Of a DNA stretch of 64,000 bases, positions 3,063-64,000 are shown piece by piece. Source of the stretch: a virus (Duplodnaviria > Caudoviricetes); the IMG/VR virus record IMGVR_UViG_3300031998_000056, positions 9,919 through 73,918 of that record. One strand, written 5' to 3'. Position 1 is the stretch's first letter, and each line of letters opens with the position of its first letter. A program made the position numbers and the translations under genes. The notes beneath the pieces were generated by a model, which searched no databases, was not told where the DNA came from, and was given only the letters and a program-made list of their open reading frames with translations.

Positions 3063-3068
3063 AGTTGT

Positions 3069-3455: not shown

Positions 3456-3495
3456 CATTTTGTCATTTTTTTAGGTTTATTAAAAAATTTTTGTA

Positions 3496-17488: not shown

Positions 17489-17514
17489 ACTTTAACCTTT
17501 GAACTTTGAACTTT

Positions 17515-17715: not shown

Positions 17716-18157
17716 AGAGATATTTGAGCGGAGCTTCGACAGGCTTCTCTATGTAGGGATAGCGGTAGTTATCGGGATTGTCTTTTGTATCTTATTGAGT
17801 TCGTGTAAGACCCAATACGTACCCGTAGAGACGATTAAAACCGAGTATATCACTAATACCGTTCATGATTCAGTCTACTTTGAGACGATAAAGAACGATT
17901 CCATAGTCATTAGGGAAAAGGGAGATACCATCTTTGTAGATAGGTGGCACACTTTATATCAAGACCGATGGAGGGAGAGATTAGTGACCGATACTCTGAT
18001 TAAGGTAGATTCCATACAGGTTCCCTATCCTGTGGAGAAGAAATTATCCTTTTGGGAGAAAGCGAGATATACATCATTAGGGATGGTGTGTTCTGTGATT
18101 CTTTTAGGGATTGTAGGAATAGCTTTATGGATTAGACGAAGATATAAGAGACTATGA
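17699..18157 (+). CDS. spanin-like lipoprotein
   Basis: N-terminal hydrophobic segment ending LLSSC and a C-terminal TM; located in the lysis cassette. Confidence 0.6.
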   Translation: MEMENEEIFERSFDRLLYVGIAVVIGIVFCILLSSCKTQYVPVETIKTEYITNTVHDSVYFETIKNDSIVIREKGDTIFVDRWHTLYQDRWRERLVTDTLIKVDSIQVPYPVEKKLSFWEKARYTSLGMVCSVILLGIVGIALWIRRRYKRL

Positions 18158-18555
18158 GAGACGCCGGAAGAGATATAAGAAGGAACTCCCGTCAGGCTGT
18201 AGCTTTGGCTGACGTGGCTAAGAGAGGGTTCTTAGATGGTTGGTTATTAGACAACCAGACCAACTTCATTGAGACGATGGACTTGGTTAGGGATGGCGCA
18301 CCCGTTCAGTGGGCCAAACTCTATTTAGAGGCGTATAAGATGGGGTTGGTGAAGGAGCAGAATATCAATATCAATATAAACAGACAGCAAGACAGAGAGA
18401 ATCTACAGGCTCTTGTTCATGCACGGATCACTCCACAATTGGAAGCCTATACACCTTTTGAGGAAGTTACACCAACTCCTGTCTTAGACGATGGAGAGTT
18501 AGCGAAGGAAGAGGATTTGAAGAAACGAACCTTAGAGATATTAAAGAAGAAATGA
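18154..18555 (+). CDS. hypothetical protein (possible small terminase-like)
   Basis: 133-aa coupled ORF; function guessed only from size and helical character. Confidence 0.4.
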   Translation: MRDAGRDIRRNSRQAVALADVAKRGFLDGWLLDNQTNFIETMDLVRDGAPVQWAKLYLEAYKMGLVKEQNINININRQQDRENLQALVHARITPQLEAYTPFEEVTPTPVLDDGELAKEEDLKKRTLEILKKK

Positions 18556-48013: not shown

Positions 48014-49687
48014 TTAGCCTGCGATGTCAGTACCAGTGTACTCTTCCCAAGAATCGCCGTCCCAAATGTAGACCTTGCCCTTTTCGAAGGTCTCATCGGG
48101 TGTCGGGGCTTCATGCTCAATCACGAAGTCGCTGGTCAAAGCAATCTTCATGTTGGTGGAAGGATTGGAAGGAAGCACGTTAGAGCTGACGATGTAGTTA
48201 ATCACGCCCTGATCCATGAGGTTGAAGATACCGCCCTCGGGGCCTACCATGATGGAGTTGTAACCCTTCAATGCCACAGCATCGGTGTCGTACTCCCAAT
48301 GTGTCTTGGCCAGACGGATATCGCCAGCGCCCTTCGACATGTCGTTGGTGCGGCTGCGGCCCTTCTCCTTGATGTAGTGAACGGCGTTATCCATGTCGAG
48401 GATGAACATGTAGTCGGCCATGCCCATGAAGTCGAGGGTCTGATCCCAGATGAAGTTGATTTCACCGAAGGTGTCCTTGAACTTCTTGAAGGTGAGGTCG
48501 TACTCGCTCTCAACGGTCATGTGAATCTGACGATTCGTGCCGGGGTTGATGTTCTCCAAGCGCTCGATAGCGTTCTTACCGCAGAATGCGAATGCGCGGT
48601 TAGAGGTAGCGAAGTCAGTGAACTGAAGCTTCGACAGGGCGATAAGGTCGGACAGGGTGTACTCGTTGCCGATAGCATAGTGGTTGGGAATCTGTGTCAT
48701 GATACCCTCTGAGTAGAACACATCCTCCACAGAGCCGTCATCGTTCATACGCTTACGCTTTGCCTTGACACCAAACCAATAGCCACGCTCAACACGCATG
48801 TCGTCCTTGATGGAAGCATCCTCCAAGAGGTTAGCCACCTTGACGGGGTACTTCTTCTTAGCCACCTCAAACTCCTCGGTGAAGGTAACGTTCCAGCCGT
48901 GCTTCTGGAGGTAGACCTCGCGCTCACGGGGCTGGAAGTTATCGGGAGTAACGAGAAGCTGCGATTCGCTCATGGCGTTCCACATACCAACGAGGTACGT
49001 ACCTACAGCAAGCTGAGGAACGGTCTGATAGTCGTATTCATCGCCCACCTGTGTAGAAACAGCAGCAGGGCCGTTGATGGCTACCAAGGTTGCACCAGTC
49101 TTGTCGCGCTCAATCACCTCAAGAACGAGGAAGTTACCATCGTGTTCGCTCTGGCTGCCGGGCTTGTAGCCACCCATCGAGGGAACAGCGAGGAGGTCGT
49201 ACTTGCGGAAAGCGAGGAGGTTGCCAGAGAAGTTGTCCTTCGTGAGCTTCACCTGTGCGCCAGCGCTGACCTGTGTAGTGATAGTTCCATCAAGAGTCTC
49301 ACCACCTACGCGAGCGTGCATGATAGAATAATTGGTAACACTCTGTGTCTTTGCCACACGGCTCAGAATGCGGAGGAACGGAACCTTGTAAGGACGAATC
49401 TGTGTGATTTTATCCTCACGCTCTTGGTCTTCCAAACCACCCTCACGAATCTGAGTGGCGCTGGCCTGTGTACCTGTTAGCACCTGACCTGCGTTGTCGC
49501 CACCAGGCATTACGCGGTCGTTAACGGTCGGGTCGACAGGCTCATGGTCGGCAGCAGGGTCGGCCTTCAACATGTCGTCCGTTCCGGGATTCTCAATAGT
49601 GCCGGGAGCCATGCAGCCACCGCCACTTACAACTGCGACAGCGGTGAGCATATAGCTCAGCAATCGCCAAAAGTTGACTTTTTTCAT
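48014..49687 (-). CDS. major capsid protein (probable)
   Basis: 557 aa, strongly biased C-ending codons suggesting high expression; follows a scaffold-like gene, divergent from portal. Confidence 0.7.
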   Translation of the reverse strand: MKKVNFWRLLSYMLTAVAVVSGGGCMAPGTIENPGTDDMLKADPAADHEPVDPTVNDRVMPGGDNAGQVLTGTQASATQIREGGLEDQEREDKITQIRPYKVPFLRILSRVAKTQSVTNYSIMHARVGGETLDGTITTQVSAGAQVKLTKDNFSGNLLAFRKYDLLAVPSMGGYKPGSQSEHDGNFLVLEVIERDKTGATLVAINGPAAVSTQVGDEYDYQTVPQLAVGTYLVGMWNAMSESQLLVTPDNFQPREREVYLQKHGWNVTFTEEFEVAKKKYPVKVANLLEDASIKDDMRVERGYWFGVKAKRKRMNDDGSVEDVFYSEGIMTQIPNHYAIGNEYTLSDLIALSKLQFTDFATSNRAFAFCGKNAIERLENINPGTNRQIHMTVESEYDLTFKKFKDTFGEINFIWDQTLDFMGMADYMFILDMDNAVHYIKEKGRSRTNDMSKGAGDIRLAKTHWEYDTDAVALKGYNSIMVGPEGGIFNLMDQGVINYIVSSNVLPSNPSTNMKIALTSDFVIEHEAPTPDETFEKGKVYIWDGDSWEEYTGTDIAG

Positions 49688-50671: not shown

Positions 50672-52630
50672 ATGGCAAAGATACGTACACGCTCACAGGT
50701 CGGCCTTCACGATTCGGTAAAGGCCCGAAAACGGAGCAGCGCATTGCCTATTCGCCGCAGCAGAAGGGAGGATAATGACCTAAAGATAAGGTGCGAACAG
50801 GCTTGGAACAACCTTGACGATGTACGACAGACCCGTGAGAGGGTGATGGAATACGTCTACGGAGACCAATGGGGCGACATCATCCGCTATAAGAACGGGT
50901 TCGTCACAGAGCGCGAATACATCCAGAGGAAGGGCAATGTTCCTTTGCAGAACAACATCATGATAAGCATTCTCCAATCTATCGTTGGTTTGTATGCCAA
51001 GCAGAGGGGAGAGCCTAATTGTTTTGCCGTAAGGAAAGACGGACAATGGCTGTCGGACATGATGAGCGCTACCATCCAATCGTGTTGGACTAAAACAAAG
51101 ATGCCTGATGTGTTGAAGGTGGCGTTTGAGGATTTCGCCCTTGGCGGTGTGGCCGTATCGAGGGAAACCTACGAAGAAAGAGACGGATGGAAGGACGCTT
51201 GGACTGACTTTATCAATCCAAATTATGTGTTCTGGGAGGCTGGCAACGATTCGCGCATGACCGACTTGAGAATGATTGGCGTGTTGCATGATGTTGCGCC
51301 CGGAGACCTTTACAATCGTTTCTGTACGAAAGAGTACGGATGGTCGGTGGAAGAACTTAATGAAGTGTTCCATATCGAGAACGATGAGACCTTGCGTGGC
51401 TATCGCAAAGAATCTGGCTTACAGCAGAACGAGAAGGACAGCCTCAGTTCCGTCAGCTTCGACAAGCCCTCGGACGAATCCCTTTGCAGACTGATAGAGG
51501 TTTGGACGAAGGAGACCAAGCCGAGATACCAATGTTACGACCCATTGGCACAGAGTGCCGATGAGGTGGAGTACAGGGTGGAGATAAACGACCTTTGGCA
51601 CGTTCAGCAAGAGAACGAGCTGAGGGTGAGACAATACCAAGAGGTGGGCGTTCCCGAAGAAGAGTGGGCGTTGATAGAGTACGAACTTGTGGAGGACAGG
51701 TATTGGTATTATACCTTCATGGCTCCCGATGGTACAGTCATCGCAGAAGGGGAGACGCCCTATGAATCGCATTCGCACCCGTTCACGATTAAGCTTTATC
51801 CTTACGTGAACAGCGAGATACATCCTTTTATGGGGAATATTATCGACCAGCAGAGGTATATCAACCGCTTGATTATCATGCACGATATGGCGGCACGTTC
51901 TGCGGCAAAGGGATTGACCATTTTCCCGATAGAGAATATTCCCGATGGAATGTCAAAGGCAGACGTGGCCGATGAGTTGACGGAGTATGACGGCCTGTTG
52001 TTCATTCAGACGAACAGGCTTAACCCGAACCTGCGGCCAGAGATTATCACTTCGAATGCCGTTCAGATCGGCACACAGGAGTTGTTGCAGATGGAGTTGA
52101 ACCTTGCGCGAGACATTACGAATGTGTCGGGCGCATTACAGGGCAAGACACCTTCGGCTGGCACATCGGCAGCGAGATACAACCAAGAGACGGAGAACGC
52201 CACGACCTCTCTGATGTCGATATTGCAAGACTTCACTTCGTTCATGGAGGATATTGCCACGAAGAAGTGCATGATGATTAAGCAATACTACAGGAAGGGC
52301 AGGTTGGTTACGAACAAGGACAAGACCTCGCTGATTGAGTATGATAACTTATCAGCAAGGGATGTATACTTTGAGACGACCATCAAGGAGAGTGCCAAGA
52401 CCGCCGCATTCCAGACGTATCTCAACGATACCGCACTACAACTTTTGCAGATGAACGCCATCAGCGTGAAGCAGTATCTTGAGGTTGTGAACCTTCCCTA
52501 TGCTGACGAGTTGTTGCAGATTATCCAGCGTGACGAGGCACAACAGCTTGCCATGCAGCAGCAGCTTGCACAGGAGGGTGTGAACCAAGAGCAAGTACAG
52601 AACGCACAGAAAATGTTACAAGCAGCATAA
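50672..52630 (+). CDS. portal protein (P22-like)
   Basis: 652 aa; YVYGDQW, IIDQQRYINRL, ELARDITNVSGALQG pattern of P22-type portals. Confidence 0.85.
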   Translation: MAKIRTRSQVGLHDSVKARKRSSALPIRRSRREDNDLKIRCEQAWNNLDDVRQTRERVMEYVYGDQWGDIIRYKNGFVTEREYIQRKGNVPLQNNIMISILQSIVGLYAKQRGEPNCFAVRKDGQWLSDMMSATIQSCWTKTKMPDVLKVAFEDFALGGVAVSRETYEERDGWKDAWTDFINPNYVFWEAGNDSRMTDLRMIGVLHDVAPGDLYNRFCTKEYGWSVEELNEVFHIENDETLRGYRKESGLQQNEKDSLSSVSFDKPSDESLCRLIEVWTKETKPRYQCYDPLAQSADEVEYRVEINDLWHVQQENELRVRQYQEVGVPEEEWALIEYELVEDRYWYYTFMAPDGTVIAEGETPYESHSHPFTIKLYPYVNSEIHPFMGNIIDQQRYINRLIIMHDMAARSAAKGLTIFPIENIPDGMSKADVADELTEYDGLLFIQTNRLNPNLRPEIITSNAVQIGTQELLQMELNLARDITNVSGALQGKTPSAGTSAARYNQETENATTSLMSILQDFTSFMEDIATKKCMMIKQYYRKGRLVTNKDKTSLIEYDNLSARDVYFETTIKESAKTAAFQTYLNDTALQLLQMNAISVKQYLEVVNLPYADELLQIIQRDEAQQLAMQQQLAQEGVNQEQVQNAQKMLQAA

Positions 52631-53532: not shown

Positions 53533-54381
53533 ATGTCAAAGACACTAACCCTGAGCTTGAATAAGAAGCTCATTATTGAGGCCGTAAAAGCCGACACCTA
53601 CATCACCGGAGCTATTGACAAGAGCGCCGATGCAGTGAAAAACTCAGCCCTTGCTTATAACGAGCAGGCTGGTGATGATACCTACCATGAGCGAAAGCTT
53701 ACCCGTACACTTGCTGGCGCAGTAGGTTCTCTTGAGGCAAACTTCGCAGAGTTTATTGACACAAGCGTACTGAATGCTATTTCGGACACGCTGGCCGCTG
53801 CCGATTCAGACGGCAACTTCACGATTACGATTATCGTCAGCGACCGCTACAACAATGGTTTGGCTTATCCTATCGCCCAGCTCTCACAGGAGTACATCGT
53901 GAACAAGATGCTGTACTATTGGTGGCAGAGCATCCGTCCTACACTTGCCAAGGACTACCTTGCTTTCTCTGCTGAATCGCTGACAAACATCCGCCTGTGC
54001 TTGGCCAAGACAGCCCCTCTCGCCAACAGCGCATCGTATGAGGACGTTTCGGGTGATGTAAATGGTTCTTCTTCTGAGACCATCGTTGTCAAGACCACGA
54101 TTTCACAGGCCAACGACAAGTACACCATCGCACGCGCTACCTTCCTTGGTTACTACGATTCGTCAAGTAAGCTCATCGTTGAATGTAGCGACCCGACAGC
54201 AGGGTTCACGTTGAAGGCTGGAACGGCAGTCATCTGCAATATCGGTTCTACTCCGTATACCATTACCGCCAAGAACTTCGCAGACCTTTCAAGCTCAGAC
54301 GCAACCAACATCGAGTTTATTCCTACAGGCACTCTTGGCAGCTCCAACGTACTCATTGTCAAGACCGCTACGGCATCCTAA
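53533..54381 (+). CDS. ring/adaptor protein 2
   Basis: Clear paralog of 54394..55158 (LNKxLIIEAVK, AYxEQAGxD). Confidence 0.6.
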   Translation: MSKTLTLSLNKKLIIEAVKADTYITGAIDKSADAVKNSALAYNEQAGDDTYHERKLTRTLAGAVGSLEANFAEFIDTSVLNAISDTLAAADSDGNFTITIIVSDRYNNGLAYPIAQLSQEYIVNKMLYYWWQSIRPTLAKDYLAFSAESLTNIRLCLAKTAPLANSASYEDVSGDVNGSSSETIVVKTTISQANDKYTIARATFLGYYDSSSKLIVECSDPTAGFTLKAGTAVICNIGSTPYTITAKNFADLSSSDATNIEFIPTGTLGSSNVLIVKTATAS

Positions 54382-54393
54382 AGTGTTTCTATT

Positions 54394-55158
54394 ATGAACT
54401 TGACCATCACCCTTACTCTTAACAAGCCGCTGATTATTGAGGCGGTGAAGAACGAGACCTTCCTCACAGGACAGGTACAGAAGGGCGCGGACAAGAACCT
54501 TATCGTTGCTGCCTACCACGAACAGGCTGGCAATGATGTTTATCAGGAGCGACTATTGGAACGAGGGTTGTATGTTGCGTTGGAGGAGTTAAAGACCTAT
54601 TTCTCTGACTATCTCTCAACGACAGGCTTCACTACCGCAGACAACTCCGTAGATTCCTCTATGGATGGGGATAATATCCTCATCCAACTTGTCGTTTCGA
54701 ACAGGTTCAACAAAGGTTACACGCAGTCGCTTGCCCGTCTGTCCTCAAAGTACATTGAGGAGTCGATGCTGATTGATTGGTGGAAGCCCGTGAACGAGAA
54801 GCAGAGCTTGTTATATGCTCAGTTCTTGGAGCGCGACCTTGCCGCCATCAGACGTTGTTTCAACAAGACAGCCCCCGAAGTTCCTACCGTTCCTTATCCC
54901 ACTACGTTAAGTGTCACAGGCTCTGCTATAGACATCGGAGTAGACGAGGAATACACTATTACCTATACGCTCAACGATTGGGCGATAGATGATATTGAGA
55001 TACGGATAGCAGACCCTGTTATCTGTGCTGCTGGAAGAACGGAGGAAGGTTTTACGGTTATTGGAAAGCAACTTGGCCACACATACGCACAGCTCTATTC
55101 CCGTCACAATGAAGATTTGACGAGGACGATACACGTTTATGTGACAGACCAGACTTAG
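54394..55158 (+). CDS. ring/adaptor protein 3 with C-terminal Ig-like extension
   Basis: Paralog of 53533..54381. Confidence 0.6.
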   Translation: MNLTITLTLNKPLIIEAVKNETFLTGQVQKGADKNLIVAAYHEQAGNDVYQERLLERGLYVALEELKTYFSDYLSTTGFTTADNSVDSSMDGDNILIQLVVSNRFNKGYTQSLARLSSKYIEESMLIDWWKPVNEKQSLLYAQFLERDLAAIRRCFNKTAPEVPTVPYPTTLSVTGSAIDIGVDEEYTITYTLNDWAIDDIEIRIADPVICAAGRTEEGFTVIGKQLGHTYAQLYSRHNEDLTRTIHVYVTDQT

Positions 55159-55191
55159 TGCAGAGTTCATAGTGCAGAGTTCATAGTTTGT

Positions 55192-55821
55192 ATGACTGAA
55201 AGAGAATATCTACAAGGTTACAGGACGATGGGGTTGCCAAGACCTCAGCCAGACGACAATTGGCCGTACCACGACCATCCGAACAACGGGAACGACCCTC
55301 AGTATGGAGTGAAGAACCCGAAGTTCGAAAGGCATATCTTTATCCGTAGAGACCAAGTGTTCTACGATATAGATGCGCAGTTAGGGATGATTTCGGAAGG
55401 AAGGAAGAACCCAGACGGCACGGAGGACGAGACGATGACCAACGCCACGACCAAGTACCAGCAGTTGTTCTACCGATGGATTGATTCCCACATAGGCGAG
55501 GCCAAGACCACGATGTCGGCATTCGTGTTGGAGAAGTTCAAGACGAGTGCGATGAACTCCATCAAGGACAAGGACGAGGTGGATATCACCTTGTTAGTTC
55601 CCGAGTGGTATGACGACACTACCTTCCCACAGCTCACGGATGCCGTCCACAATTATGTGGTGAGCGCCACACTATATGATTACTTGCAGATGCGCCTCAC
55701 ATCGAAAGACCCGATAACGATAGACAAGCGCGACCAAAAGACCTTGGCTCTTGAGGAGGTGAGGAAACTTGTGAACGCTGCGAAGCCGGGGCGCATCAAA
55801 AAGATTCTGAAACCGTTTTGA
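55192..55821 (+). CDS. ring/adaptor protein 4
   Basis: QLTDAVHNYVVSATLYDYL motif shared with the other ring proteins. Confidence 0.5.
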   Translation: MTEREYLQGYRTMGLPRPQPDDNWPYHDHPNNGNDPQYGVKNPKFERHIFIRRDQVFYDIDAQLGMISEGRKNPDGTEDETMTNATTKYQQLFYRWIDSHIGEAKTTMSAFVLEKFKTSAMNSIKDKDEVDITLLVPEWYDDTTFPQLTDAVHNYVVSATLYDYLQMRLTSKDPITIDKRDQKTLALEEVRKLVNAAKPGRIKKILKPF

Positions 55822-56300
55822 TTGTAAGGTTAGTTGTAAGTGTTCTGTTGGTGGGGTCGTACTTTTTTCTACCGAAGTACGGCTTCACCTCTTTTAACTC
55901 TCCACTAACAGACCACCTTCTTTATTCTATTTCACATGCGAACATCTTCCACTTGGCAGCTAACGTACTTTGTTTGTGGTTGCTCAAGTGCCCTACATAT
56001 TTATATATAACGTATCCGATAGCCGTTCTTGCATCGTTTCTCCCTTCATTTACCATCTATACCTTATTAGGTTATGAAGCATCGGGCATGACGATGGGCT
56101 TTTCGGGTGTACTCTTTGCCATCGCAGCTATGGCTTGGGGAAGGATACACAGGTTCAAGAGGATGTTCACAAAGAACATTTGGTTTATCGTTATCCCCTT
56201 CTTCGTTCCGAACATCAATGCCATTCTTCATGTGTACTGCATGTTGATGGGATATTATTGCGGACAACTGACAACTGACTACAAACTACGGACGGCATGA
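55818..56300 (+). CDS. rhomboid-family intramembrane serine protease
   Basis: HANIFHLAAN (HxxxxHxxxN), GFSG (GxSG) and TM His in ILHVYC; very hydrophobic. Confidence 0.85.
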   Translation: MIVRLVVSVLLVGSYFFLPKYGFTSFNSPLTDHLLYSISHANIFHLAANVLCLWLLKCPTYLYITYPIAVLASFLPSFTIYTLLGYEASGMTMGFSGVLFAIAAMAWGRIHRFKRMFTKNIWFIVIPFFVPNINAILHVYCMLMGYYCGQLTTDYKLRTA

Positions 56301-58444
56301 TTCCAGAGGTAAAGGACTTAATTGCGGAGAACCACCTGCGCAGGCAGGAGATATATGGGCCTTACGACCCCCTAACAGGTGTGGGGTGCTACGGGTTTGT
56401 CAAAGGAATGAGAAAGCATATTACCATTCCCGATTGCATCATTCCCGAGATGTTCGTACCGAAGGAGACTTTAACTACTGCGATATTCCATGAGGTTTTA
56501 AGGTTCGGCTCTATCAAGGCGTATATAGAGAAGGGGATGAATCGTGACTACGATGCGGACTACCATCAGGACGTGGAGGAAGCTTTGTTCCAAGCGAGAT
56601 TCATTGACGACCCAGAGTTCGCGTTCTACATGACCGATAAGATTGTTGACAAGACAACGGGTAACCTTATTCCTTTTAGGTTGAGATACGCCCAAAGAAA
56701 GCTCCTTAATCTGATGGAGGACAGCCGCAGGGCAGGGAAGCCGATACTTATTGCTCTATTGAAAGCCCGTCAGTGGGGAGGCTCAACATTAACCCAGATG
56801 TACATGAAGTGGATGCAAGACTACCGTCATCCGAATGGATGGAACATGGCTATACTTGCACAGGTAGGCTCTACATCAAAGAAGATTAAGGCCATGTACA
56901 GAAAGGCTATCGAGAGCCAGCCCGGATGGACGTTGGGAATGCCTGGCACTAAGTTCAAGATGTCGCCTTATGAGCAGAGCGATTCAGACTTTATCATCAC
57001 AGACGGACGATTCGCGTTAAGACCTTCCACTTTAAGTGTGGCCTCGTTTGAGAACTTTGAGAAGCTTCGTGGTGATAACTTCAAGATGGTACACTACTCC
57101 GAGGTTGCTTTGTGGAAAAAGACACCCGAGCATGATCCAGAGGAAGTGATTTCTGCCGCAGAGGGAGGACTTATCGGACTACCCGATGAATTAGCCGTAT
57201 TTGAAAGTACGGGTATGGGTAATTCGGGCTTCTTCTACGACCTGTGTCAAGATGCCATGAAGGAAGATACCACATCTGCTTATAAGTTCCTGTTTATCCC
57301 GTTCTATATGATTGAGCATGACATGGAGCCGAAAGGGGAGAACGGGTTTACCCCCGAACAGGAGGAGGCGTTTGCAGAGTGGCTGTGGAACAACAGGAAC
57401 TACGACAAGTGCCCTGCTGGGTACAGAGAGCCGGGCAAGTTCTTTTGGAAGATGTGGAAACTTGGGGCGTGTTTCGAAGCTATCAATTGGTACAGGATAA
57501 ACCGAAATAAGCACAAGAACCACGCTTATATGGCTTCCGAGGCTCCCATTGACCCGACAGAAGCTTTCCGTAATAGTGGCAATGCCGTCTTTAATCCTTA
57601 TTCTATAGATGAGTTAAAGGAGGAATGCAAAGCTCCGAAAGCACCGCTTTACTATGCAGATGTCATCCTTGCTCCGTTTGAGAGAAGGTCGAGGTCGGTA
57701 TTCTTAAACTCAGAAGTAAGGTTTAGAAACGACAACCAAGGCGAGATGAAGATATGGTCTACTCCTAATAATCATATCTTCCGCATCAAGAACAGATACT
57801 TTGTATCAGTCGATATAGGTGGTAACTCTGCCACAGCGGACTATACGGTGATGACTGTCATTGATAACATGGGTTTGTGTCCGGGCGTGAACGGAAAGCC
57901 AAGGGTAGTGGCACGATGGAGAGGGCACGTAAGACATGACATCCTTGCATGGAAAGCCGCAGCTTTAGCCCATTACTATGACGATGCTCTCTTAATCATA
58001 GAATCGAACACCGCTGACCGAGAAAGAGACAACAATACCGAGGGCGACCACTTCGGAACGATTATTGAGGAGATTTCGGGATACTATACCAATCTCTATC
58101 AGAGGACGAAAGAACCCGAGGCCACTACGGAGGGAATCAAACCTATCTATGGTTTCCAGACGAATAAACTAACAAAGGGTTGGCTGATAGATAACCTCAT
58201 AGCCTGTGTGGATGACAAGCTGTGGGATGAACCCGATGAAGAGATGTACAGAGAACTTGGTTGGTACGAAAGACGAGAGGACGGCTCGATGGGTAACAAG
58301 CTTGGTTCTGGCAAGCATGATGACGTGCTGATGTCTACAGCCATTGCTTTATGGGTTGCGTTCAACTCTCCTTATAAACCAAGCTGGCCAACAGACAGGG
58401 CAACAACCCGTGACAGGCTGCTGCCCACAGAAGCAAGCTTCTGA
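56297..58444 (+). CDS. terL: terminase large subunit
   Basis: LKARQWGGST Walker A, VHYSE Walker B, VSVDIGG and HDDVLM nuclease motifs. Confidence 0.95.
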   Translation: MIPEVKDLIAENHLRRQEIYGPYDPLTGVGCYGFVKGMRKHITIPDCIIPEMFVPKETLTTAIFHEVLRFGSIKAYIEKGMNRDYDADYHQDVEEALFQARFIDDPEFAFYMTDKIVDKTTGNLIPFRLRYAQRKLLNLMEDSRRAGKPILIALLKARQWGGSTLTQMYMKWMQDYRHPNGWNMAILAQVGSTSKKIKAMYRKAIESQPGWTLGMPGTKFKMSPYEQSDSDFIITDGRFALRPSTLSVASFENFEKLRGDNFKMVHYSEVALWKKTPEHDPEEVISAAEGGLIGLPDELAVFESTGMGNSGFFYDLCQDAMKEDTTSAYKFLFIPFYMIEHDMEPKGENGFTPEQEEAFAEWLWNNRNYDKCPAGYREPGKFFWKMWKLGACFEAINWYRINRNKHKNHAYMASEAPIDPTEAFRNSGNAVFNPYSIDELKEECKAPKAPLYYADVILAPFERRSRSVFLNSEVRFRNDNQGEMKIWSTPNNHIFRIKNRYFVSVDIGGNSATADYTVMTVIDNMGLCPGVNGKPRVVARWRGHVRHDILAWKAAALAHYYDDALLIIESNTADRERDNNTEGDHFGTIIEEISGYYTNLYQRTKEPEATTEGIKPIYGFQTNKLTKGWLIDNLIACVDDKLWDEPDEEMYRELGWYERREDGSMGNKLGSGKHDDVLMSTAIALWVAFNSPYKPSWPTDRATTRDRLLPTEASF

Positions 58445-58459
58445 AAATAGAGCTGGGGA

Positions 58460-58592
58460 AGAAAAGGCCCCCGGCTTGACAAATAGAACCACCAATTTAT
58501 CATTATGACTGCCTGACAAGCAGAGCGCCGGGGGTTATACCCTGTAACTCTACTTGCCAAGCGGCCTGTGTCAATATGGTTGGTGGTTCGGG
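58460..58592 (-). ncRNA. candidate small structured RNA
   Basis: Perfect promoter TTTG-N19-TAACTTTG (58596-58626); three crossing complementary pairs; ends in GCCGGGGGCC-TTTTCTT. Confidence 0.5.
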
Positions 58593-58637
58593 GTGCAAAG
58601 TTAAAGAAAAATGTTCAACAGACAAAATTTTGTACCG

Positions 58638-58871
58638 ATGAAGGCTTACGAATTGTTGAAAATTAACACAAATCTCCTTGAAATGATGTCAAAGTTTGAC
58701 ATTAAGCGAGACGATTGTAAGTTTCTGAAACTTTATGAGGAATACCACGCCATGAAGGAGAAGGGCGAGAAGTATTGGTATATCATCACGAAGCTTGCAG
58801 AACGCTACGGAGTGAGTGCGAGTAGTGTGAAGAGGCTTGTCAAAAGGCTTTCCAGAGAGGTCATTTTCTGA
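58638..58871 (+). CDS. HTH regulator (Mor-like)
   Basis: Likely start MKAYELL; C-terminal LAERYGVSASSVKRLV. Confidence 0.75.
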   Translation: MKAYELLKINTNLLEMMSKFDIKRDDCKFLKLYEEYHAMKEKGEKYWYIITKLAERYGVSASSVKRLVKRLSREVIF

Positions 58872-58892
58872 ACCCAACGTTTGAATGAAAAG

Positions 58893-58924
58893 CTTGCAAG
58901 TAATGTTGCTTGTAGGTATTTTTG
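58893..58924 (+). promoter_or_regulatory. promoter of the accessory operon with overlapping palindrome
   Basis: CTTG-N20-TATTTTTG; palindrome CTTGCAAG covers the -33 box; TCATGTCT/AGACATGA hairpin just downstream. Confidence 0.6.
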
Positions 58925-58989
58925 TCATGTCTTAGCGCAGAGACATGAGATAGTTAAACGATTTATTCACATTCAAACAAAAGATTTCT

Positions 58990-59538
58990 ATGGAACTCAA
59001 AGATTTAGTGGAGATGAAAGCGCTGGAGAACAACGGCCTTTCCCCATTTGAGCAGTACAAGGTCGGGTACATGCAGCAAAAGAACCACACCAGCGGCATC
59101 GGTGTGACAGGTCTTGTGTTGGGTTGTGTTGGCACAGCCGCCGCCGTAGGTGCATGGATATTCGCTCCGTTGTATGGTAATGCCAAGGCCAGCCAAGCCA
59201 AGGAAGCCGCCTATGCAGCCAAGGAGATTGCATCCATCCAGAATGGTGCTACCCAGCGTCAGCTTGACCAGCTTACCAACCTTCTTGCCGCAGAGCGTAG
59301 TGAGCGTTTGCAGGGTGACATCACCTTGAACGCCACTATCAACGACACCGTTAGTGGTCAGCAAGCCGCCAGCCTTACCGCACAACAGGCCGCAGAGCTG
59401 TCGAGCGTGAACTCTGTGATGCAGCAGACCTATTCAGACTTCGTGACAGGCCGCGCCAGCTTGAATCCTACTCCCGTGAGCCTCTACAGCGCTCCCCAGC
59501 CCTGTAGCTGCCCCAACTCATGCGGATGTAACGGGTAA
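58990..59538 (+). CDS. membrane/coiled-coil protein with Cys-rich C-terminus
   Basis: Gly-rich TM GIGVTGLVLGCVGTAAAVGAWIF, coiled coil, ends PCSCPNSCGCNG. Confidence 0.85.
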   Translation: MELKDLVEMKALENNGLSPFEQYKVGYMQQKNHTSGIGVTGLVLGCVGTAAAVGAWIFAPLYGNAKASQAKEAAYAAKEIASIQNGATQRQLDQLTNLLAAERSERLQGDITLNATINDTVSGQQAASLTAQQAAELSSVNSVMQQTYSDFVTGRASLNPTPVSLYSAPQPCSCPNSCGCNG

Positions 59539-59602
59539 ACAACTGAACGGATATTCCGGATTAACCCGATAGTCTGGAATATCCCTTCTAAACACACGGC
59601 AA

Positions 59603-59938
59603 ATGAGATGGTTCAAAAAGAAACGATTAGAGATGGTACAGGCAATAAGACCGACAAGTAAGGCTACGCTAAAGATACAATGTCTGTTCGCGTGCAAGGG
59701 GGATATAACTGAGGCGATGAAGCTCTATGATTACTTCGCCAATGATATGCCCGAGTTGCCTGACTACGACCCTGTACAGCCTACATGGGTGGATAACACA
59801 AAGGATACCGTCAATGGCTTGGTGGGTTGGTTCAAAGAGAATCAAGACACGCTGGCACAGGGGTATGACTTTATCATGAATGTAGTTAAGAAAAGAGGAA
59901 CGGCTGTAGCTGCTGAGGCTCTGCCAAGCATCAATTAA
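59603..59938 (+). CDS. hypothetical protein
   Basis: 111-aa ORF in the accessory operon. Confidence 0.75.
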   Translation: MRWFKKKRLEMVQAIRPTSKATLKIQCLFACKGDITEAMKLYDYFANDMPELPDYDPVQPTWVDNTKDTVNGLVGWFKENQDTLAQGYDFIMNVVKKRGTAVAAEALPSIN

Positions 59939-59945
59939 ATAATGT

Positions 59946-60164
59946 ATGGAAAAGAGAGAACTGAAAGGATTCCCGATAGCATTTAACATCTATGCGGAGA
60001 ACGAGAGCGAGGCCGAGGAGTGCCGTATGGCTATTGTGGCTTTCATAGGGCTTCATGCCTCACAATGCAGGGCTGTGACCGCAAAGAAGGTGGCACAGGC
60101 GTTGTCGAATTGGGATAAGAATATGTTAGTGAAGAACAGGATTATTCAATACTTTAAAGACTGA
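59946..60164 (+). CDS. hypothetical protein
   Basis: 72-aa coupled ORF. Confidence 0.75.
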   Translation: MEKRELKGFPIAFNIYAENESEAEECRMAIVAFIGLHASQCRAVTAKKVAQALSNWDKNMLVKNRIIQYFKD

Positions 60165-60400
60165 TGGAAGGTAAATTTCTATGCTCTGGCGATTGCCTCA
60201 AATGTATGCCAGCGCAGAGGACATATTGTGCATCACAACACGCCTATTCGAACATGAAGGTGCTTGACCAACTCATGAGTGAGGTGCTTTCTATTAAGGA
60301 GAAGATTGAGGCGATGCAGAACAACGAGGCTATGGTGTTCGACCTTAAAGCGCAAGAGGGGGAAGCGGCGCAGACAATAGGCTCCCGAGATAGTTTTTAG
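60164..60400 (+). CDS. Cys-cluster + coiled-coil protein
   Basis: CSGDCLKC...YC N-terminus. Confidence 0.75.
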   Translation: MEGKFLCSGDCLKCMPAQRTYCASQHAYSNMKVLDQLMSEVLSIKEKIEAMQNNEAMVFDLKAQEGEAAQTIGSRDSF

Positions 60401-60421
60401 TTTAATTAAAATTTTTAGTTT

Positions 60422-60868
60422 ATGAACTGCAACAATGGAAAGACATTCGTGGTATCACTTACTACGGTGCCGGGCGGTACAGCCGCCAACGCCAATTATT
60501 TATTGGCACTCGACCACTACACTTGTGGTAACAGAAAGCTTTGTACGCAAGAGGTGTTCCCTGTGACAGCCGACCTCAAGGCAACGGCCATAGGAGCGCC
60601 TGTGAACGTGGGTAACGACACCTTCTGTCAAGAGGTGCTTATCAGTGGAACGTGTACATTCATGCCGTATGTGTGCGGATGTAATTGTAACGTATGCCCG
60701 AGGACGGACAATGTGTATTGCACGATTTGTGTGCCCTGCTCTGCCGCCACTACTCCGACCTTGACAATAGGGGATAGCGTGGCCACGCCCACTAACGTTC
60801 AGCCCTGCTGCAATGTTACCAATGCGATTGCCATCACTACGACACTTAATGTAACGACAGGAGCATGA
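60422..60868 (+). CDS. Cys/Thr-rich beta-strand protein
   Basis: 14 Cys in 148 aa. Confidence 0.8.
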   Translation: MNCNNGKTFVVSLTTVPGGTAANANYLLALDHYTCGNRKLCTQEVFPVTADLKATAIGAPVNVGNDTFCQEVLISGTCTFMPYVCGCNCNVCPRTDNVYCTICVPCSAATTPTLTIGDSVATPTNVQPCCNVTNAIAITTTLNVTTGA

Positions 60869-61233
60869 TTCCTTGGGGTGATATTGCTTGCATCGTGTTC
60901 GTCTGCGTGACGATGAACCACCTCGGACTTATGGGAAAAATCGAGGGGATAGTGGGATTTCGTATTCCCATCCTTAATTGCCCGAAGTGTGCAAGTTGTT
61001 GGTTAACACTCGCTTACCTTATGGGGAAAATGGGATTTTTAATAATCCCACAAATCCCATTGGTGCTTGCAATATCATTCCTTGCCAGCTACATTGCTTT
61101 GTGGCTGGAACTGCTTGAAGGATATATCGACACTTTATATTTGAAGCTTTATGGGAAGATTGTATCAAAATATAGTGACAACGAGGTTGCCGCAGATACC
61201 GACAAAGGTTATTCCGAAAGCGCCTTGCCCTAA
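60865..61233 (+). CDS. membrane protein with CPKC motif (DUF1360-like)
   Basis: ILNCPKCASCW between TM segments. Confidence 0.7.
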   Translation: MIPWGDIACIVFVCVTMNHLGLMGKIEGIVGFRIPILNCPKCASCWLTLAYLMGKMGFLIIPQIPLVLAISFLASYIALWLELLEGYIDTLYLKLYGKIVSKYSDNEVAADTDKGYSESALP

Positions 61234-61285
61234 TTGCCCGAAGGTGACAGAAACGAGTTTAAAAAGAAGAAAAAATAACGTGTGA
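61151..61285 (+). CDS. 44-aa overlapping protein with CPNC motif (not in ORF track)
   Basis: MGRLYQNIVTTRLPQIPTKVIPKAPCPNCPKVTETSLKRRKNNV. Confidence 0.5.
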   Translation: MGRLYQNIVTTRLPQIPTKVIPKAPCPNCPKVTETSLKRRKNNV

Positions 61286-61341
61286 TTTTCTAAGCAAAAA
61301 GGGAGCGCCTGATACACAGCACTTTACGTTCTTTTAGGAAA

Positions 61342-61845
61342 TTGCAAGAAAATAAAGAAGAAATGACACAGGAAGAATTAAGAAACGAGTTCCTTGCCTT
61401 GTATGAGATGATGGCGGACTCAAACAATGTGGCTTATATGCGCATCTTCGGAGATGTTCACAAGGAGATGATGGAATGGTTTATCCAGAACAAGCCCGAG
61501 CTTGCGCATGAGTGGGTGTATAAGCTTGAAACCATCCGTTGGAAGAACTACCTCACACCGAAAGAAGCGGAGACGATCGTCTCAAAGATGGAGCCGAAAG
61601 CCCCTTGGAACAGGGAGCAATGGAAGAGCGCGATGGAAGGTCATGGACTACCCTTGGAGAAAGAGCCTTTCTACAACAGGTGCGCTATGTATGTGACGAT
61701 GAACATGATTATGAGTGATTCGTCAGCCACGCTTGGGAAGTTCGTGGATGAGGAGAATATGTTCCACCTGGTACATGATTTGGCCGTAGATAAGCTGACG
61801 GATAAGGACGGCGTTTTCAACGTGAAACGCTACTTTGGGATGTAA
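61342..61845 (+). CDS. helical hypothetical protein, last gene of the accessory operon
   Basis: YLTPKEAETIVSKM...W...YVTMNMIMSD...LAVDKLTDKDG. Confidence 0.8.
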   Translation: MQENKEEMTQEELRNEFLALYEMMADSNNVAYMRIFGDVHKEMMEWFIQNKPELAHEWVYKLETIRWKNYLTPKEAETIVSKMEPKAPWNREQWKSAMEGHGLPLEKEPFYNRCAMYVTMNMIMSDSSATLGKFVDEENMFHLVHDLAVDKLTDKDGVFNVKRYFGM

Positions 61846-61864
61846 CCATGCTTGCCGTGTGGTC

Positions 61865-61888
61865 GGGAGGCGTCTTATGGCGCTTCCC
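61865..61888. terminator. terminator closing the accessory operon
   Basis: GGGAGGCGTC-TTAT-GGCGCTTCCC stem between convergent units. Confidence 0.6.
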
Positions 61889-61909
61889 ATATCAAAAAAA
61901 GGAGGGGCT

Positions 61910-62557
61910 TCATTGCTCCTCCTTCTTTAAATCAAACTTTTCAGAGAGACGTTTTATTATCTCTTCGGCGTGTTGCTCCTGTTCGGGCGTGAGTGGTGTG
62001 TGGCGCTCCTTCGATAGCTGTTCTATGCGCTTCTGTTGTTCTGCCCGTCCACGTTCTACTGATAGTTCATTCCAGAAAGGACGCAAACACATCAGAAATT
62101 CTTGTGGGTTCGGTCGGGAGGACTGATAAATCTTTCCGTAGTCACCACGTTTGAACTGCTTTAAGAACGACAGGAACTCATCGAGGTTCAGTTGTCCGAA
62201 GATTTCATTGTCGAGGATAAGCTCTGCCGTCTGCATGATTTGCCCTTTGGATGCTGTATCGAAGATTCCGAGGAAAGCAAACGTTTCTGCGATGTGAAAT
62301 CGAAGCCACATCAGCGTTGCCTCTCTTGAAAAGAAGTTCGTCACCTCAAAGAGGGTGGGGGCTTTACTTGCTGCCGCATCCCCGAGTGTTACAAGTGCTT
62401 TTGAGTGCGCGTTAAAGACAAGTGTCGTATAGTCCGGGCCGTACCGATTGACCGCAGCCATGAGCTTGTCTTTACTGACCGACAACGATGTCGGCCAGTT
62501 TAGCGATGCGCTGCTGTTCGATGGTAGGTTTTGTATTTCTGAAATAGATTTCATCAT
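61910..62557 (-). CDS. putative replication accessory/loader protein
   Basis: Follows the initiator-like gene; FLKQFKRGDYGKIY motif common in Bacteroidales phage replication modules. Confidence 0.5.
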   Translation of the reverse strand: MMKSISEIQNLPSNSSASLNWPTSLSVSKDKLMAAVNRYGPDYTTLVFNAHSKALVTLGDAAASKAPTLFEVTNFFSREATLMWLRFHIAETFAFLGIFDTASKGQIMQTAELILDNEIFGQLNLDEFLSFLKQFKRGDYGKIYQSSRPNPQEFLMCLRPFWNELSVERGRAEQQKRIEQLSKERHTPLTPEQEQHAEEIIKRLSEKFDLKKEEQ

Positions 62558-62903
62558 TCCACGATTTGTTGTTCAAATAGGTGTATGGGTCTTTTCTGAA
62601 ATTTACATCTGGAGTGGATGCAACGTAGGCAGGGGTGGCATTAAGACAAGCTTGCCTGTCTTTCTGGGAAAGCTTTTGCCACTTCTTCAAGCACTTGTCC
62701 TTGCCTCGTTTCTTCTGATAGAGTTCCCACCATTGGTCGAAGGATGAATCGGCATCTACGACCTCTATCCCATCTGCTAAAAGGATTCCTGTTTCGAAGA
62801 AGTCGCGGCAGAGGGCCTTTATCTGTTCGGGGTCTTGTGGAAGGTTCGCTCCTTTGATACGCCAACGACCTTCAAAGGCTTTGGTTATTTCCTGTTGTGT
62901 CAT
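62472..62903 (-). CDS. replication initiator-like protein
   Basis: FDQWWELYQKKRGK...RKDPYTYLNNKSWNDE initiator C-terminal motif. Confidence 0.6.
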   Translation of the reverse strand: MTQQEITKAFEGRWRIKGANLPQDPEQIKALCRDFFETGILLADGIEVVDADSSFDQWWELYQKKRGKDKCLKKWQKLSQKDRQACLNATPAYVASTPDVNFRKDPYTYLNNKSWNDEIYFRNTKPTIEQQRIAKLADIVVGQ

Positions 62904-62907
62904 CGTT

Positions 62908-63669
62908 CTACAGCTTCTTTAGTTCCTCTAAAAGTTCTTTAAGCAAGTCGACAGAAAATCCTTCACTACCATAATACTTGACAGCATCAGAAAGACATGC
63001 TAATTGTGTTTCACTCGGCTTCCAAGTATATCTGTATTTGAGGGATTTAAGCCAATGTTTTGTTTTTCTTTTCTCTTCAAATGACCATCCATCCTTTGTG
63101 GCAATAGCATTTATACACTCCGCCATATAACATTCATCCTCTTCACTCCAAGCAGGTTTATCATACAGTACTTCCTTTGCTTCTGCCGATATCATGCGTT
63201 GTGGCTTCTGCTCATCCTTGCAAGTTTTTGCAGAATTAGCAAGAATTTGCTCACCTTGCTTTTCAAGCATCAATTTATCTAACTCTGAGAGTTCTATATA
63301 ATCACACTCATAACCAAGACAGGAACTAAGACTATATGTATAACCATTCTTTACCAAATAAATCGGTTTACCTTCTCCATTTCCAGCAATACCATCTTTC
63401 CAATGTTTCCAAATTGATACTTTTTTTGGTGTGCCTTGCTTCTCAAGCCAAGCAAGTGCTTCTTCCTTGTGAACATTATAGTCAATCCATAACCCATCAC
63501 CAGTAGTATCATGCACCAGTTCAAGTAATGCTTTCCTTATCCTCTCGTCCTCACTCTCTTTGAGTTCGGGGAAATAATGCTCTGCATCATCTTTAGTAGC
63601 ACCATGCAAGCCTTCGTAAAGACTTTGCATCCAACCTAAAGCTTCCTTGTATTTCTTTTCGTAGTCCAT
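62908..63669 (-). CDS. hypothetical protein of a modular Prevotella-phage family
   Basis: FPELKESEDERIRK, AWLEKQG, WSEEDE, WKPSE modules. Confidence 0.75.
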   Translation of the reverse strand: MDYEKKYKEALGWMQSLYEGLHGATKDDAEHYFPELKESEDERIRKALLELVHDTTGDGLWIDYNVHKEEALAWLEKQGTPKKVSIWKHWKDGIAGNGEGKPIYLVKNGYTYSLSSCLGYECDYIELSELDKLMLEKQGEQILANSAKTCKDEQKPQRMISAEAKEVLYDKPAWSEEDECYMAECINAIATKDGWSFEEKRKTKHWLKSLKYRYTWKPSETQLACLSDAVKYYGSEGFSVDLLKELLEELKKL

Positions 63670-63671
63670 AA

Positions 63672-63890
63672 TTACTCCTTTCTATACTTTTTGACTGCTT
63701 CTTTGGCTTGATATTCAGCTATAACAAGCATTTTCTTGTCATTTTTATATATCGCCTTTGCTAAATCTATCATTGCTTCTTCCAAATGGTCGGCACAGTA
63801 GGGATAACTTGGTATGTCTGGGTCTATACATGGGTAGTATGCAACTGCCTGTTTGCCACAGATACAGCATCTGTCATCTTTTGCTTCCAT
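63672..63890 (-). CDS. small Zn-finger-like protein
   Basis: CCICG...PYCADH. Confidence 0.65.
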   Translation of the reverse strand: MEAKDDRCCICGKQAVAYYPCIDPDIPSYPYCADHLEEAMIDLAKAIYKNDKKMLVIAEYQAKEAVKKYRKE

Positions 63891-63893
63891 AGT

Positions 63894-64000
63894 TTACTTC
63901 GTTTGCTTTTCAAGTTCTCGCTTTGCATCTACAATGCCTTTAAGGTAGGCATCATCTATCTGTCTTTGAACTTTCTTCTGATTTTCAAGCCAAGCAATCC
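63894..64000 (-). CDS. 3' end of a gene truncated by window edge
   Basis: ...IAWLENQKKVQRQIDDAYLKG...KQTK stop; shares the AWLE.Q module with 62908..63669. Confidence 0.55.
   Translation of the reverse strand, partial: IAWLENQKKVQRQIDDAYLKGIVDAKRELEKQTK

Follow-up and report, generated by a model that had tools for sequence, protein, structure and literature searches.

Positions 58611 to 61925 of a 64,000-nucleotide stretch of phage DNA (hereafter, the window) hold an insulated and portable accessory unit of Bacteroidales phages. Its parts are a small helix-turn-helix (HTH) gene, a promoter box of the host type, eight ORFs in one orientation and a terminator made of two hairpins; it appears to be self-regulated and is designated here as the “type A” cassette. 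By sequence, it matches nothing characterised. We propose, at a probability of roughly one in three, that its products build an assembly at the inner membrane, bridged by metal ions, which acts late and is allied to lysis. Note that the anatomy, conservation and portability of the cassette are far more secure than this functional reading. In the human gut and the rumen, few viruses are as abundant as the phages that infect Bacteroides and Prevotella, and no role is known for the majority of their genes.

Anatomy and distribution of the cassette

The product of the head gene, HTH86 (58611–58871; all genes of the cassette lie on the plus strand), is small and basic, and its residues 59–83 probably form a helix-turn-helix. 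It matches PHROG 17790 (function unassigned) at E 1.5e-15, and about 15 HTH Pfam families match the same 22–25 residues, every one below its cut-off. A −7 box, TATTTTTG (58917–58924, plus strand), fits the Bacteroidota consensus TAnnTTTG and is kept in that form, at an equal distance from the p182 start, in four related loci. Abutting this box and spanning the expected −33 position is an inverted repeat (58892–58917, plus strand) with the perfect palindrome CTTGCAAG. The first-pass annotation had described a promoter with a palindrome over its −33 box. Both box and palindrome are present, but the repeat, which has an 11-pair stem (z −2.9) and was flagged as terminator-like with a T-rich tail, could be an operator or, equally well, terminate transcription of the HTH gene.

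The terminator described earlier is represented by two strong G+C-rich hairpins (61865–61925) that close the unit between p167 and a convergent, minus-strand gene of 215 amino acids, and this region is probably bidirectional. Its minimum free energy is −43 kcal/mol (z −6.5), and none of 200 shuffled sequences folded as well. The label “replication genes” for the genes downstream of the cassette was dropped; those genes have no family match.

Every ORF listed in the first-pass annotation was found in its place, and its description of a self-contained unit with an HTH gene at the head holds for promoter box, eight genes and terminator alike. From p182 to p167 the intergenic gaps are, in order, 64, 7, −1, 21, −4, −83 and 56 bases; the p78 start overlaps the p72 stop by one base, the p122 start overlaps the p148 stop by four, and the value of −83 is likewise an overlap. 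The eight ORFs are more than chance ORFs, since gene order is kept across loci and relatives of p148 and p167 are abundant (421 clusters at 90% identity for p148 and 491 for p167).

About 40 viral contigs share the order HTH-p182-p111-p72-p78-p148-p122-p44-p167. The check for joint conservation suggested with the first-pass annotation was run on 20 loci found via p182 and 22 found via p148, and the order was kept across both sets. A homologue of HTH86 (29–51% identity) heads the cassette in 18 of 22 loci. Among the contigs with this order are an 82-kb phage contig of the isolate Prevotella sp. tc2-28 and the cultured phage BS162P1 of Bacteroides salyersiae; together with the other loci, these bear out the expected recurrence in Bacteroidota phages, which extends over gut and rumen. 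BS162P1 and its host form a cultured pair, which opens the question of function to direct bench work.

Phages that share the cassette need not share other genes. In G003, p148 is 89% identical to that of the window, yet terL is only 35% and the capsid protein 29% identical, and neither terL nor the capsid protein of the window had a detectable homologue in G001, G004 or BS162P1. The cassette adjoins terL in none of the 14 closest terL relatives (70–77% identity), and the complete sibling genomes G005 and G006 lack all eight genes in searches in which the self-control matched. These comparisons show that the cassette is transferred as a whole among phages whose capsid and packaging genes are unrelated. 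A complete provirus, G411, keeps only HTH-p148-p122-p44-p167, and this half cassette adjoins the integrase; the four-gene right half (p148, p122, p44 and p167) can stand alone.

Products of the cassette

As had been noted earlier, no product belongs to a recognisable virion, lysis or defence family (Pfam, PHROG, NCBIfam and PADLOC searches). With PADLOC-DB 2.0, no product matched at E ≤ 0.1, save for a chance-level HTH match (E 0.027). The proposed check for a match to a characterised system was run and found none.

The most conserved gene is p148 (60422–60868). Its product contains 14 cysteines, of which C35, C41, C89 and C92 are nearly invariant, is low in charge and rich in Thr, Asn and Val, and has no export signal. 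AlphaFold2 predicts a beta sandwich of eight strands (pLDDT 91, pTM 0.82) that is new-looking. Foldseek gave nothing at E ≤ 0.001 against the PDB and BFVD, and the best VIA structure match was an Hsp20 domain (Z 5.8, rmsd 3.9 over 83 residues). Complex modelling covered p148 with itself only. Three-copy predictions gave ipSAE values of 0.87, 0.89 and 0.87, with the best control at 0.29; contacts agree by at least 95%, pLDDT is 86, and residue 15 of all copies lies at the axis. Of 30 solved one-chain pairs, 20 attained the ipSAE mark, as did 1 of 23 single chains; these counts serve only as a rough calibration, because we used our own alignment and three copies. p148 is predicted to form a closed homotrimer, and no similar solved complex was found.

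The first-pass annotation had compared the Cys-rich products with spore coat and exosporium proteins, and had raised a self-crosslinking protective coat or compartment, or a redox or oxygen-protection system, as possible functions. Such roles would suit the high cysteine content and the predicted self-association of p148, and we consider them very improbable. Bacillus endospore appendage subunits (DUF3992) and Cys-rich coat or exosporium proteins would be expected to form an open head-to-tail polymer linked via N-terminal cysteines, whereas the assembly predicted for p148 is a closed trimer; p148 has no Pfam match to DUF3992, spore-coat or exosporium families at E ≤ 1, and none of them is among the matches listed in fold searches. 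The hosts are non-sporulating. p148 resembles trimeric beta-sandwich heads on stalks (the C-terminal domain of BclA and C1q-TNF-like heads, and also the endospore appendage subunits) in being a small beta sandwich of low charge with cysteines near its N terminus and, by prediction, a closed trimer. It lacks a collagen-like repeat, however, and gave no Pfam hit at E ≤ 1; BclA, C1q-TNF-like and endospore appendage chains are missing from the top 50 rows of both VIA searches with p148 (pdb_via_wide and pdb_via), which are led by Hsp20-type domains (Z 5–6), although a weak or absent fold match leaves room for such a fold. Across the cassette, there is no spore-coat, exosporium, appendage, shell or redox match by sequence or among the best fold matches, nor a thioredoxin-like or other enzyme motif, and cytoplasmic disulfide crosslinking would be unlikely in anaerobic hosts. 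The spore analogy finds no support by sequence or fold, and we found no sign of a coat, of a compartment or of a redox or oxygen-protection role.

The first of the eight genes, p182 (58990–59538), encodes a short N-terminal part, a hydrophobic Gly-rich helix with a Gly zipper (residues 35–61), a Gln/Ala-rich helical region, a Pro-rich stretch and the tail CSCPNSCGCNG, a CxCxxxCxC motif. C172, C174, C178 and C180 as well as GAW.F are invariant among eight homologues. Relatives of p182 are viral hypothetical proteins only, and it has no PDB, Pfam or NCBIfam match; its Gly-rich helix weakly matches a “minor tail protein” PHROG. Judged by the flanking charges, its membrane orientation is ambiguous. 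If the tail were periplasmic, it would not meet cytoplasmic cassette proteins before the membrane is breached.

This weak tail-protein match is one of several features that might be read as those of accessory virion parts, either a trimeric fibre or decoration (p182 as rod and p148 as head) or ejection proteins with membrane-inserting helices. The composition of p148, its predicted closed trimer and its want of an export signal recall fibre knobs, and the lead protein of the alternative cassette described below is annotated as “spike protein” or “viral fiber” in crAss-like phages. These labels appear to be automatic, with no experimental basis found. We regard a virion role as distinctly unlikely, given that the cassette crosses between phages with unrelated capsids, portals and tails, is missing from complete siblings, and lies outside the structural operons with its own regulator, promoter and terminator. 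It also includes a three-helix membrane protein and zinc-knuckle-like peptides, and in G411 the proposed head is present without the rod.

Of the three small genes that follow p182, p111 (59603–59938) encodes a helical protein with the motif LPD.DPV, which is invariant in an alignment of seven homologues; Pfam, PHROG and NCBIfam profile searches gave it no family. The product of p72 (59946–60164) is small, and its identity to relatives falls into two classes, either about 80% or about 35–45%. The product of p78 (60164–60400) has an N-terminal Cys4 knuckle, C-x3-C-x2-C-x7-C (C7, C11, C14 and C22), all four residues of which are invariant in six homologues, followed by a coiled-coil-like helix; searches of the PDB and NCBIfam gave coiled-coil noise only.

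The membrane protein p122 (60865–61233) has three hydrophobic segments and an NCPKC motif; H19 and the loop C39-x-K-C42 are invariant. It had been described as DUF1360-like, a label that we have not retained: its score against Pfam DUF1360 (PF07098) is 17.7 bits, below the gathering cut-off of 21, over profile positions 56–100 of 102 only, and just one of eight homologues matches at E ≤ 0.05. Overlapping the 3′ end of p122 in the +1 frame, p44 (61151–61285) encodes a basic peptide with the motif CPNC. Of 9 loci examined, 8 retain the overlapping frame, the CPxC motif and the position of the p44 ATG within the conserved YGK codons of p122; BS162P1 and L006, with a p122 of just 29–37% identity, are among them. 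tblastn matches to p44 were found in 20 of 22 loci. It may be either a separate gene or a frameshift extension of p122.

The last product, p167 (61342–61845), is helical and belongs to Pfam DUF7841 (PF25223; 55.8 bits against a cut-off of 25.2, E 6.6e-15, profile positions 1–112 of 114), as do all of its relatives, at least 120, among the matches listed. The family has no assigned function or solved structure and is not named in the literature searched. Homologues of p167 are 155–161 amino acids long, and the start of nearly all of them aligns with Met 8 of p167; the true start is likely the ATG at 61363, which would give 160 residues. The AlphaFold2 model (pLDDT 86) has no fold match; p148 and p167 provide two confident predicted folds without a solved relative.

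Proposed role and relation to lysis genes

Export signals are absent from all products except p182 and p122, and the hosts are strict anaerobes, so that the cysteines, judged by their motifs, most likely bind metal; for the cassette as a whole, disulfide self-crosslinking would be the less likely of the two. Lysis-gene markers were found within about 2–4 kb of the cassette, upstream or downstream, in at least 9 of 22 loci. Because the cassette often lies beside holin, endolysin and spanin genes yet contains none of these, a late role allied to lysis seems most likely. In the proposed assembly, one complex at the inner membrane would have the p148 trimer as its core, produced together with p122 (the membrane protein with CxxC), p44 (the peptide with CPxC) and the DUF7841 member p167. 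From the left half of the cassette would come p182 as a membrane-anchored helical rod with its CxCxxxCxC tail, together with three small cytoplasmic proteins that include p78 and its Cys4 knuckle. The invariant cysteine groups would hold metal ions (zinc or iron-sulfur) that bridge subunits, and the whole would act as a late, envelope-directed accessory, for example by controlling the timing of lysis or membrane events as infection ends. The earlier suggestion of a membrane complex may be correct.

Closeness to lysis genes may, however, simply result from preferred insertion where late operons end. In the window, 41 kb separate the cassette from the lysis genes, which include a holin-like gene (16229–16717) adjoining Amidase_3 and a spanin-like gene (17699–18157) with the lipobox LLSSC and a C-terminal membrane helix. 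With holin-like, Amidase_3 and spanin-like genes in place, this phage has no visibly missing lysis step.

Among known lysis systems, p182 shares the outline of the i-spanin and of RI, namely a membrane helix near the N terminus and, after it, a helical domain that contains cysteines. Compared with spanins (lambda Rz/Rz1, T1 gp11) and T4 lysis inhibition (RI and RIII with the holin T), however, the cassette has no lipoprotein partner and no sequence match, and contains six or seven further genes and a regulator of its own. A two-component spanin would pair an inner-membrane protein bearing a periplasmic coiled coil with an outer-membrane lipoprotein from an adjacent or embedded gene; p182 supplies a membrane helix and a helical region, but no product of the cassette has a lipobox signal. 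Neither p122 nor p182 matches a holin model in Pfam or PHROGs, a result that leaves room for membership due to the diversity of holins.

A second cassette type at the same slot

In the siblings G005 and G006, homologues of HTH86 (43–48% identity) head a different set of genes, designated type B, including a DUF7841 protein (E 4.4e-19). In G006, this set converges on homologues of the genes downstream of the type A cassette in the window, which places both in the same genomic slot, and types A and B are mutually exclusive in six complete genomes. Type B comprises a lead protein (PHROG 16490; about 300 amino acids, Gly-rich, with membrane and coiled-coil regions), a beta protein (PHROG 31654), PHROG 28898, DUF7841 (PHROG 38431) and a PolyVal-like HExxH protein (PHROG 1365). 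It is found in crAss-like and other Bacteroidales phages and is uncharacterised.

A variable cargo slot behind a conserved regulator is also what might be expected of a superinfection-exclusion, defence or counter-defence module. In that case a membrane complex would keep the DNA of other phages out or would disturb a host system, and it would be traded between phages in an arms race. The membrane proteins, the alternative cassettes in siblings, the strong shuffling within the cassette (p182, p111 and p72 each split into two allele classes across loci), the half cassette beside an integrase in G411 and the temperate nature of the window phage, which has an integrase, are consistent with such a module. 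We nevertheless consider it unlikely. There is no PADLOC match, and DUF7841 was found in only 2 of 401 Bacteroidales bacterial genomes, which argues against a common prophage-borne trait; the cassette is also present in a cultured phage isolated from sewage. In addition, p148 is under strong purifying selection (71–89% identity nearly everywhere), which is atypical of arms-race genes, and eight coupled genes would be unusually complex. The type A cassette is a compact multi-gene unit that forms hundreds of sequence clusters in metagenomes and stays intact while moving between unrelated phages; at one regulated slot, another unit that is just as widespread can take its place. Intact transfer and swapping of this kind argue for an important, self-sufficient function that is missed by current annotation schemes.

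Both types have the same HTH family at the head and hold a DUF7841 gene, and their layouts are alike, in that a Gly-rich membrane helix with coiled coil and Cys motif is accompanied by a small beta protein and by a protein that bears CxxC; beyond DUF7841 and HTH, there is no significant sequence similarity. p182 has no match to PHROG 16490 and is not detectably homologous to either of two type B lead proteins (hhalign probability 0.2% and 11%). The beta proteins differ in cysteine content (14 in p148 against at most one in type B), and type A has p111, p72, p78, p122 and p44 where type B has PHROG 28898 and HExxH proteins. The best cross-matches, which are non-significant, pair positional counterparts (p148 with B2, E 0.018; p122 with B6, E 0.012). 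Tentatively, the two types could be interchangeable versions of one undescribed inner-membrane device carried by most Bacteroidales phages. Its parts would be a beta-sandwich trimer as the head, a rod anchored in the membrane and cysteine knuckles bridged by metal, and it might act at the envelope late in infection, for example in lysis timing or envelope sensing. Such a device, if real, would be a functional class without a characterised member. Both types often adjoin lysis genes, and type B lies directly after them in L048 and in the crAss-like phage cr116_1.

Gene order, cysteine motifs and family matches

Every ORF listed in the first-pass annotation was found in the window, and its cysteine motifs proved to be both as described and conserved. 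HTH86 (58611-58871), a small basic protein gene, is followed by an inverted repeat, a -7 box of the TAnnTTTG type (TATTTTTG, 58917-58924) and then p182-p111-p72-p78-p148-p122-p44-p167 (58990-61845, plus strand), with short or negative intergenic gaps. Two strong hairpins close the unit 3' of p167. Invariant Cys4, Cys2His and Cys2 groups are spread over five products: p182 ends in an invariant C-x-C-x3-C-x-C, p78 begins with an invariant C-x3-C-x2-C-x7-C, and p122, a membrane protein with three hydrophobic segments, keeps His19 and C39-x-K-C42. In p148, the 14-Cys beta protein that is tightly coupled to p122, C35, C41, C89 and C92 are nearly invariant and a CC pair is common. Judged by conservation, the small ORF p44 that overlaps p122 is a real coding sequence: even where p122 itself is only 29-37% identical, p44 keeps the +1 frame, the C-P-x-C motif and a start codon (ATG) that lies within the conserved YGK codons of p122.

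The sole family matches within this cassette (here termed type A) were p167, which belongs to DUF7841 (PF25223), and HTH86, which falls in a PHROG of unknown function; the other products matched no characterised family in Pfam, PHROGs, NCBIfam or PADLOC. Membership of p122 in DUF1360, a likeness noted earlier, was rejected. Searching the cassette products against NCBIfam gave no match. PADLOC likewise returned no known defence system, which speaks against an exclusion or defence module, a role that we consider unlikely. Megablast of positions 56000-64000 and tblastn of p148 and p182 returned no match among GenBank phages; p167 was the only cassette query to match any, and the only phage matched was BS162P1, a cultured Bacteroides salyersiae phage. 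PDB sequence-profile searches with p148, p167, p182, p122 and p78 yielded no match beyond coiled-coil noise. The ESM Atlas held no usable match for p148, and for p182 only viral hypothetical proteins.

Structures were also predicted for p148 and p167. The p148 model is an eight-stranded beta sandwich (pLDDT 91) for which Foldseek found nothing in PDB or BFVD at E ≤ 0.001. VIA matched it only to sandwiches of the Hsp20/CS type at Z 5-6, scores too low to indicate anything beyond a common arrangement (the best was an Hsp20 domain, Z 5.8, rmsd 3.9 over 83 residues). Modeled as three copies, p148 is predicted to form a closed homotrimer (ipSAE 0.87 versus 0.29 for the best control, contact agreement at least 95%, pLDDT 86). 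In calibration the mark used was met by 20 of 30 solved one-chain pairs and by 1 of 23 single chains, counts that are rough when applied to the p148 job. The score is unlikely to have been memorised, because there is no similar solved complex. The p167 model is helical (pLDDT 86); Foldseek against PDB gave nothing at E ≤ 0.001, and the best VIA match (Z 5.1) covered one helical hairpin only.

The cassette is far from any characterised system. The first-pass annotation was partly right: the feature is real, and no product matches a recognisable virion, lysis or defence family. The likeness that it drew to spore-coat and exosporium proteins found no support, as neither these nor appendage proteins were matched in Pfam, Foldseek or VIA searches, and we regard its proposals of a protective coat or a redox system as very improbable. 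Nor did the fold searches bear out a resemblance of p148 to the BclA fold. No paper was found that names DUF7841, BS162P1 or the Bacteroides uniformis phage C3_41T2LP.

Distribution across phage backbones

Viral loci were collected with p182 (20 loci) and p148 (22 loci) as queries. Nearly all of them preserve the order HTH-p182-p111-p72-p78-p148-p122-p44-p167, often with one extra small gene after it, so that the neighbourhood search proposed in the first-pass annotation finds the genes conserved together. Carriers include an 82-kb contig of the isolate Prevotella sp. tc2-28 and BS162P1, in which all of these genes are annotated as hypothetical. The flanks vary among loci. At nearly every locus p148 is 71-89% identical; p182, p111 and p72 are each split into a close and a distant allele class, and the combinations differ among loci, which points to recombination within the cassette. 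In a complete provirus (G411, locus L057, 7689-9348) only HTH-p148-p122-p44-p167 are present, beside an integrase, and therefore the right half can stand alone. Neither p182 nor the lead protein of the type B cassette (see below) was detected anywhere in that record, positive controls matching in both searches. An obligatory p182-p148 pair of “stalk and head” was rejected on the grounds that this provirus has p148 without p182.

The window covers bases 9919-73918 of a 73.9-kb virus record and includes genes for a P22-like portal (50672-52630), an SU10-like major capsid protein (48014-49687, minus strand) and the large terminase (56297-58444). Directly upstream of the last lies a gene for a rhomboid-domain membrane protein (55818-56300, plus strand; PF01694, 25.1 bits versus a cut-off of 22.6). 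The rhomboid-terminase pair recurs in 13 relatives and also in G003, a viral record that carries the cassette. A rhomboid acting on the Gly-rich helix as its substrate was considered and rejected, given that the rhomboid tracks the terminase lineage and not the cassette. Three consecutive paralogous genes (53533-55821, plus strand), located after the portal region and before the rhomboid gene, match PHROG 19255, whose function is unknown. A single ORF of 6001 amino acids occupies 23224-41229 (plus strand); the corresponding ORFs of the sibling phages (5178 and 5089 amino acids) are 69-75% identical to it over ∼1700 residues. The window also encodes a tyrosine integrase with Arm-DNA-binding and SAM-like domains (5470-6618, plus strand), and the phage is therefore probably temperate. 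The TAnnTTTG promoter boxes and related records point to Prevotella or Bacteroides as hosts.

Between G003 and the window the terminases are 35% and the capsid proteins 29% identical, versus 89% for p148. No homologue of the window terminase or capsid protein was found in BS162P1 or in two other viral records (G001 and G004). In the other direction, the terminase's 14 nearest relatives (70-77% identity) have the rhomboid-terminase pair and no cassette gene within 6 kb, and tblastn at E ≤ 1 detected none of the eight cassette genes in the complete siblings G005 (74.8 kb) and G006 (74.2 kb), the window's own genome matching as a control. Because it is absent from siblings and kept across unrelated backbones, the cassette is a mobile block separate from the backbone: an autonomous, portable unit. 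By these comparisons it is not tied to capsid or tail lineage, which argues against its products being an accessory part of the virion; we rate that role somewhat lower than exclusion or defence. DUF7841 occurs in only 2 of 401 Bacteroidales genomes searched, and common prophage cargo of bacterial chromosomes was rejected for this reason.

The type B cassette

Both siblings keep an HTH86 homologue (43-48% identity) with a different set of genes, the type B cassette, behind it in the same direction. These encode a lead protein of ∼300 amino acids (it has GGFG repeats, a single, very hydrophobic helix, a coiled coil rich in Gln and Asn, and a CCC motif), a beta-rich protein (112-115 amino acids) whose G006 copy starts with MNCNN, as p148 does, a 170-amino-acid protein, a DUF7841 protein (E 4.4e-19) and an HExxH protein with CxxC at its end. 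They correspond to PHROGs 16490, 31654, 28898, 38431 and 1365, all of unknown function. The two minus-strand genes on which the G006 unit converges are homologous to the pair facing the window cassette. Many crAss-like phages have the lead protein, annotated there as “spike protein/glycoprotein” or “viral fiber”, and so does the cultured phage C3_41T2LP. In one Bacteroidales genome (L048, 9035-9364) the type B cassette includes a 109-amino-acid protein of GYGER-like Gly/Tyr/Arg repeats.

What types A and B have in common is the HTH family, DUF7841 and the overall layout; no other similarity is significant. In an all-against-all profile comparison p167 and its type B DUF7841 counterpart scored best (probability 63%, E 7e-5). 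The pairs ranked after them were positional counterparts and not significant (p122 with the HExxH/CxxC protein, E 0.012; p148 with the beta-rich protein, E 0.018). The type B lead protein is absent from four complete type A genomes, and type A from two complete type B genomes. The two types thus replace each other at a single slot, and from these six genomes we infer that they are alternative versions of the same function.

Lysis neighbourhood and proposed function

Lysis markers lie within 2-4 kb of the cassette in at least 9 of 22 loci. In L001, a metagenomic viral contig, an Amidase_2 endolysin and a holin are directly upstream, and in L004 and L007 holin and endolysin homologues are directly downstream. 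Type B directly follows lysis genes in L048 and in the crAss-like phage cr116_1. Note that in L001 the endolysin adjoins a phage Peptidase_C10 domain fused to a dockerin (2614-3495).

Due to this neighbourhood, the unit would act late, at the envelope and allied with lysis. Its products would form one assembly at the inner membrane, in which the cysteine groups would bind metal and bridge subunits; metal binding is favored because the hosts are strictly anaerobic and the soluble products carry no export signal. We assign a probability of roughly one in three to such a late, envelope-directed, lysis-associated inner-membrane assembly. As evidence the neighbourhood is weak: the window cassette is far from the phage's own lysis genes (16229-18157), and insertions are common at the ends of late operons. 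The probability left over after the alternatives is given to something not yet thought of.

A core lysis cassette was rejected, since a set that looks complete is located elsewhere: a holin-like gene (16229-16717), Amidase_3 (16844-17488) and a spanin-like gene (17699-18157) for a 152-amino-acid protein with a lipobox (LLSSC) and a C-terminal membrane helix, the layout of a unimolecular spanin. All are on the plus strand, in a block (16229-18555) that also encodes an 85-amino-acid basic protein and a 133-amino-acid protein. In another locus (L016, 844-4395), QueC-like and radical-SAM (QueE-like) genes are just upstream of the cassette, and BS162P1 is arranged alike; these genes suggest 7-deazaguanine modification of the phage DNA.
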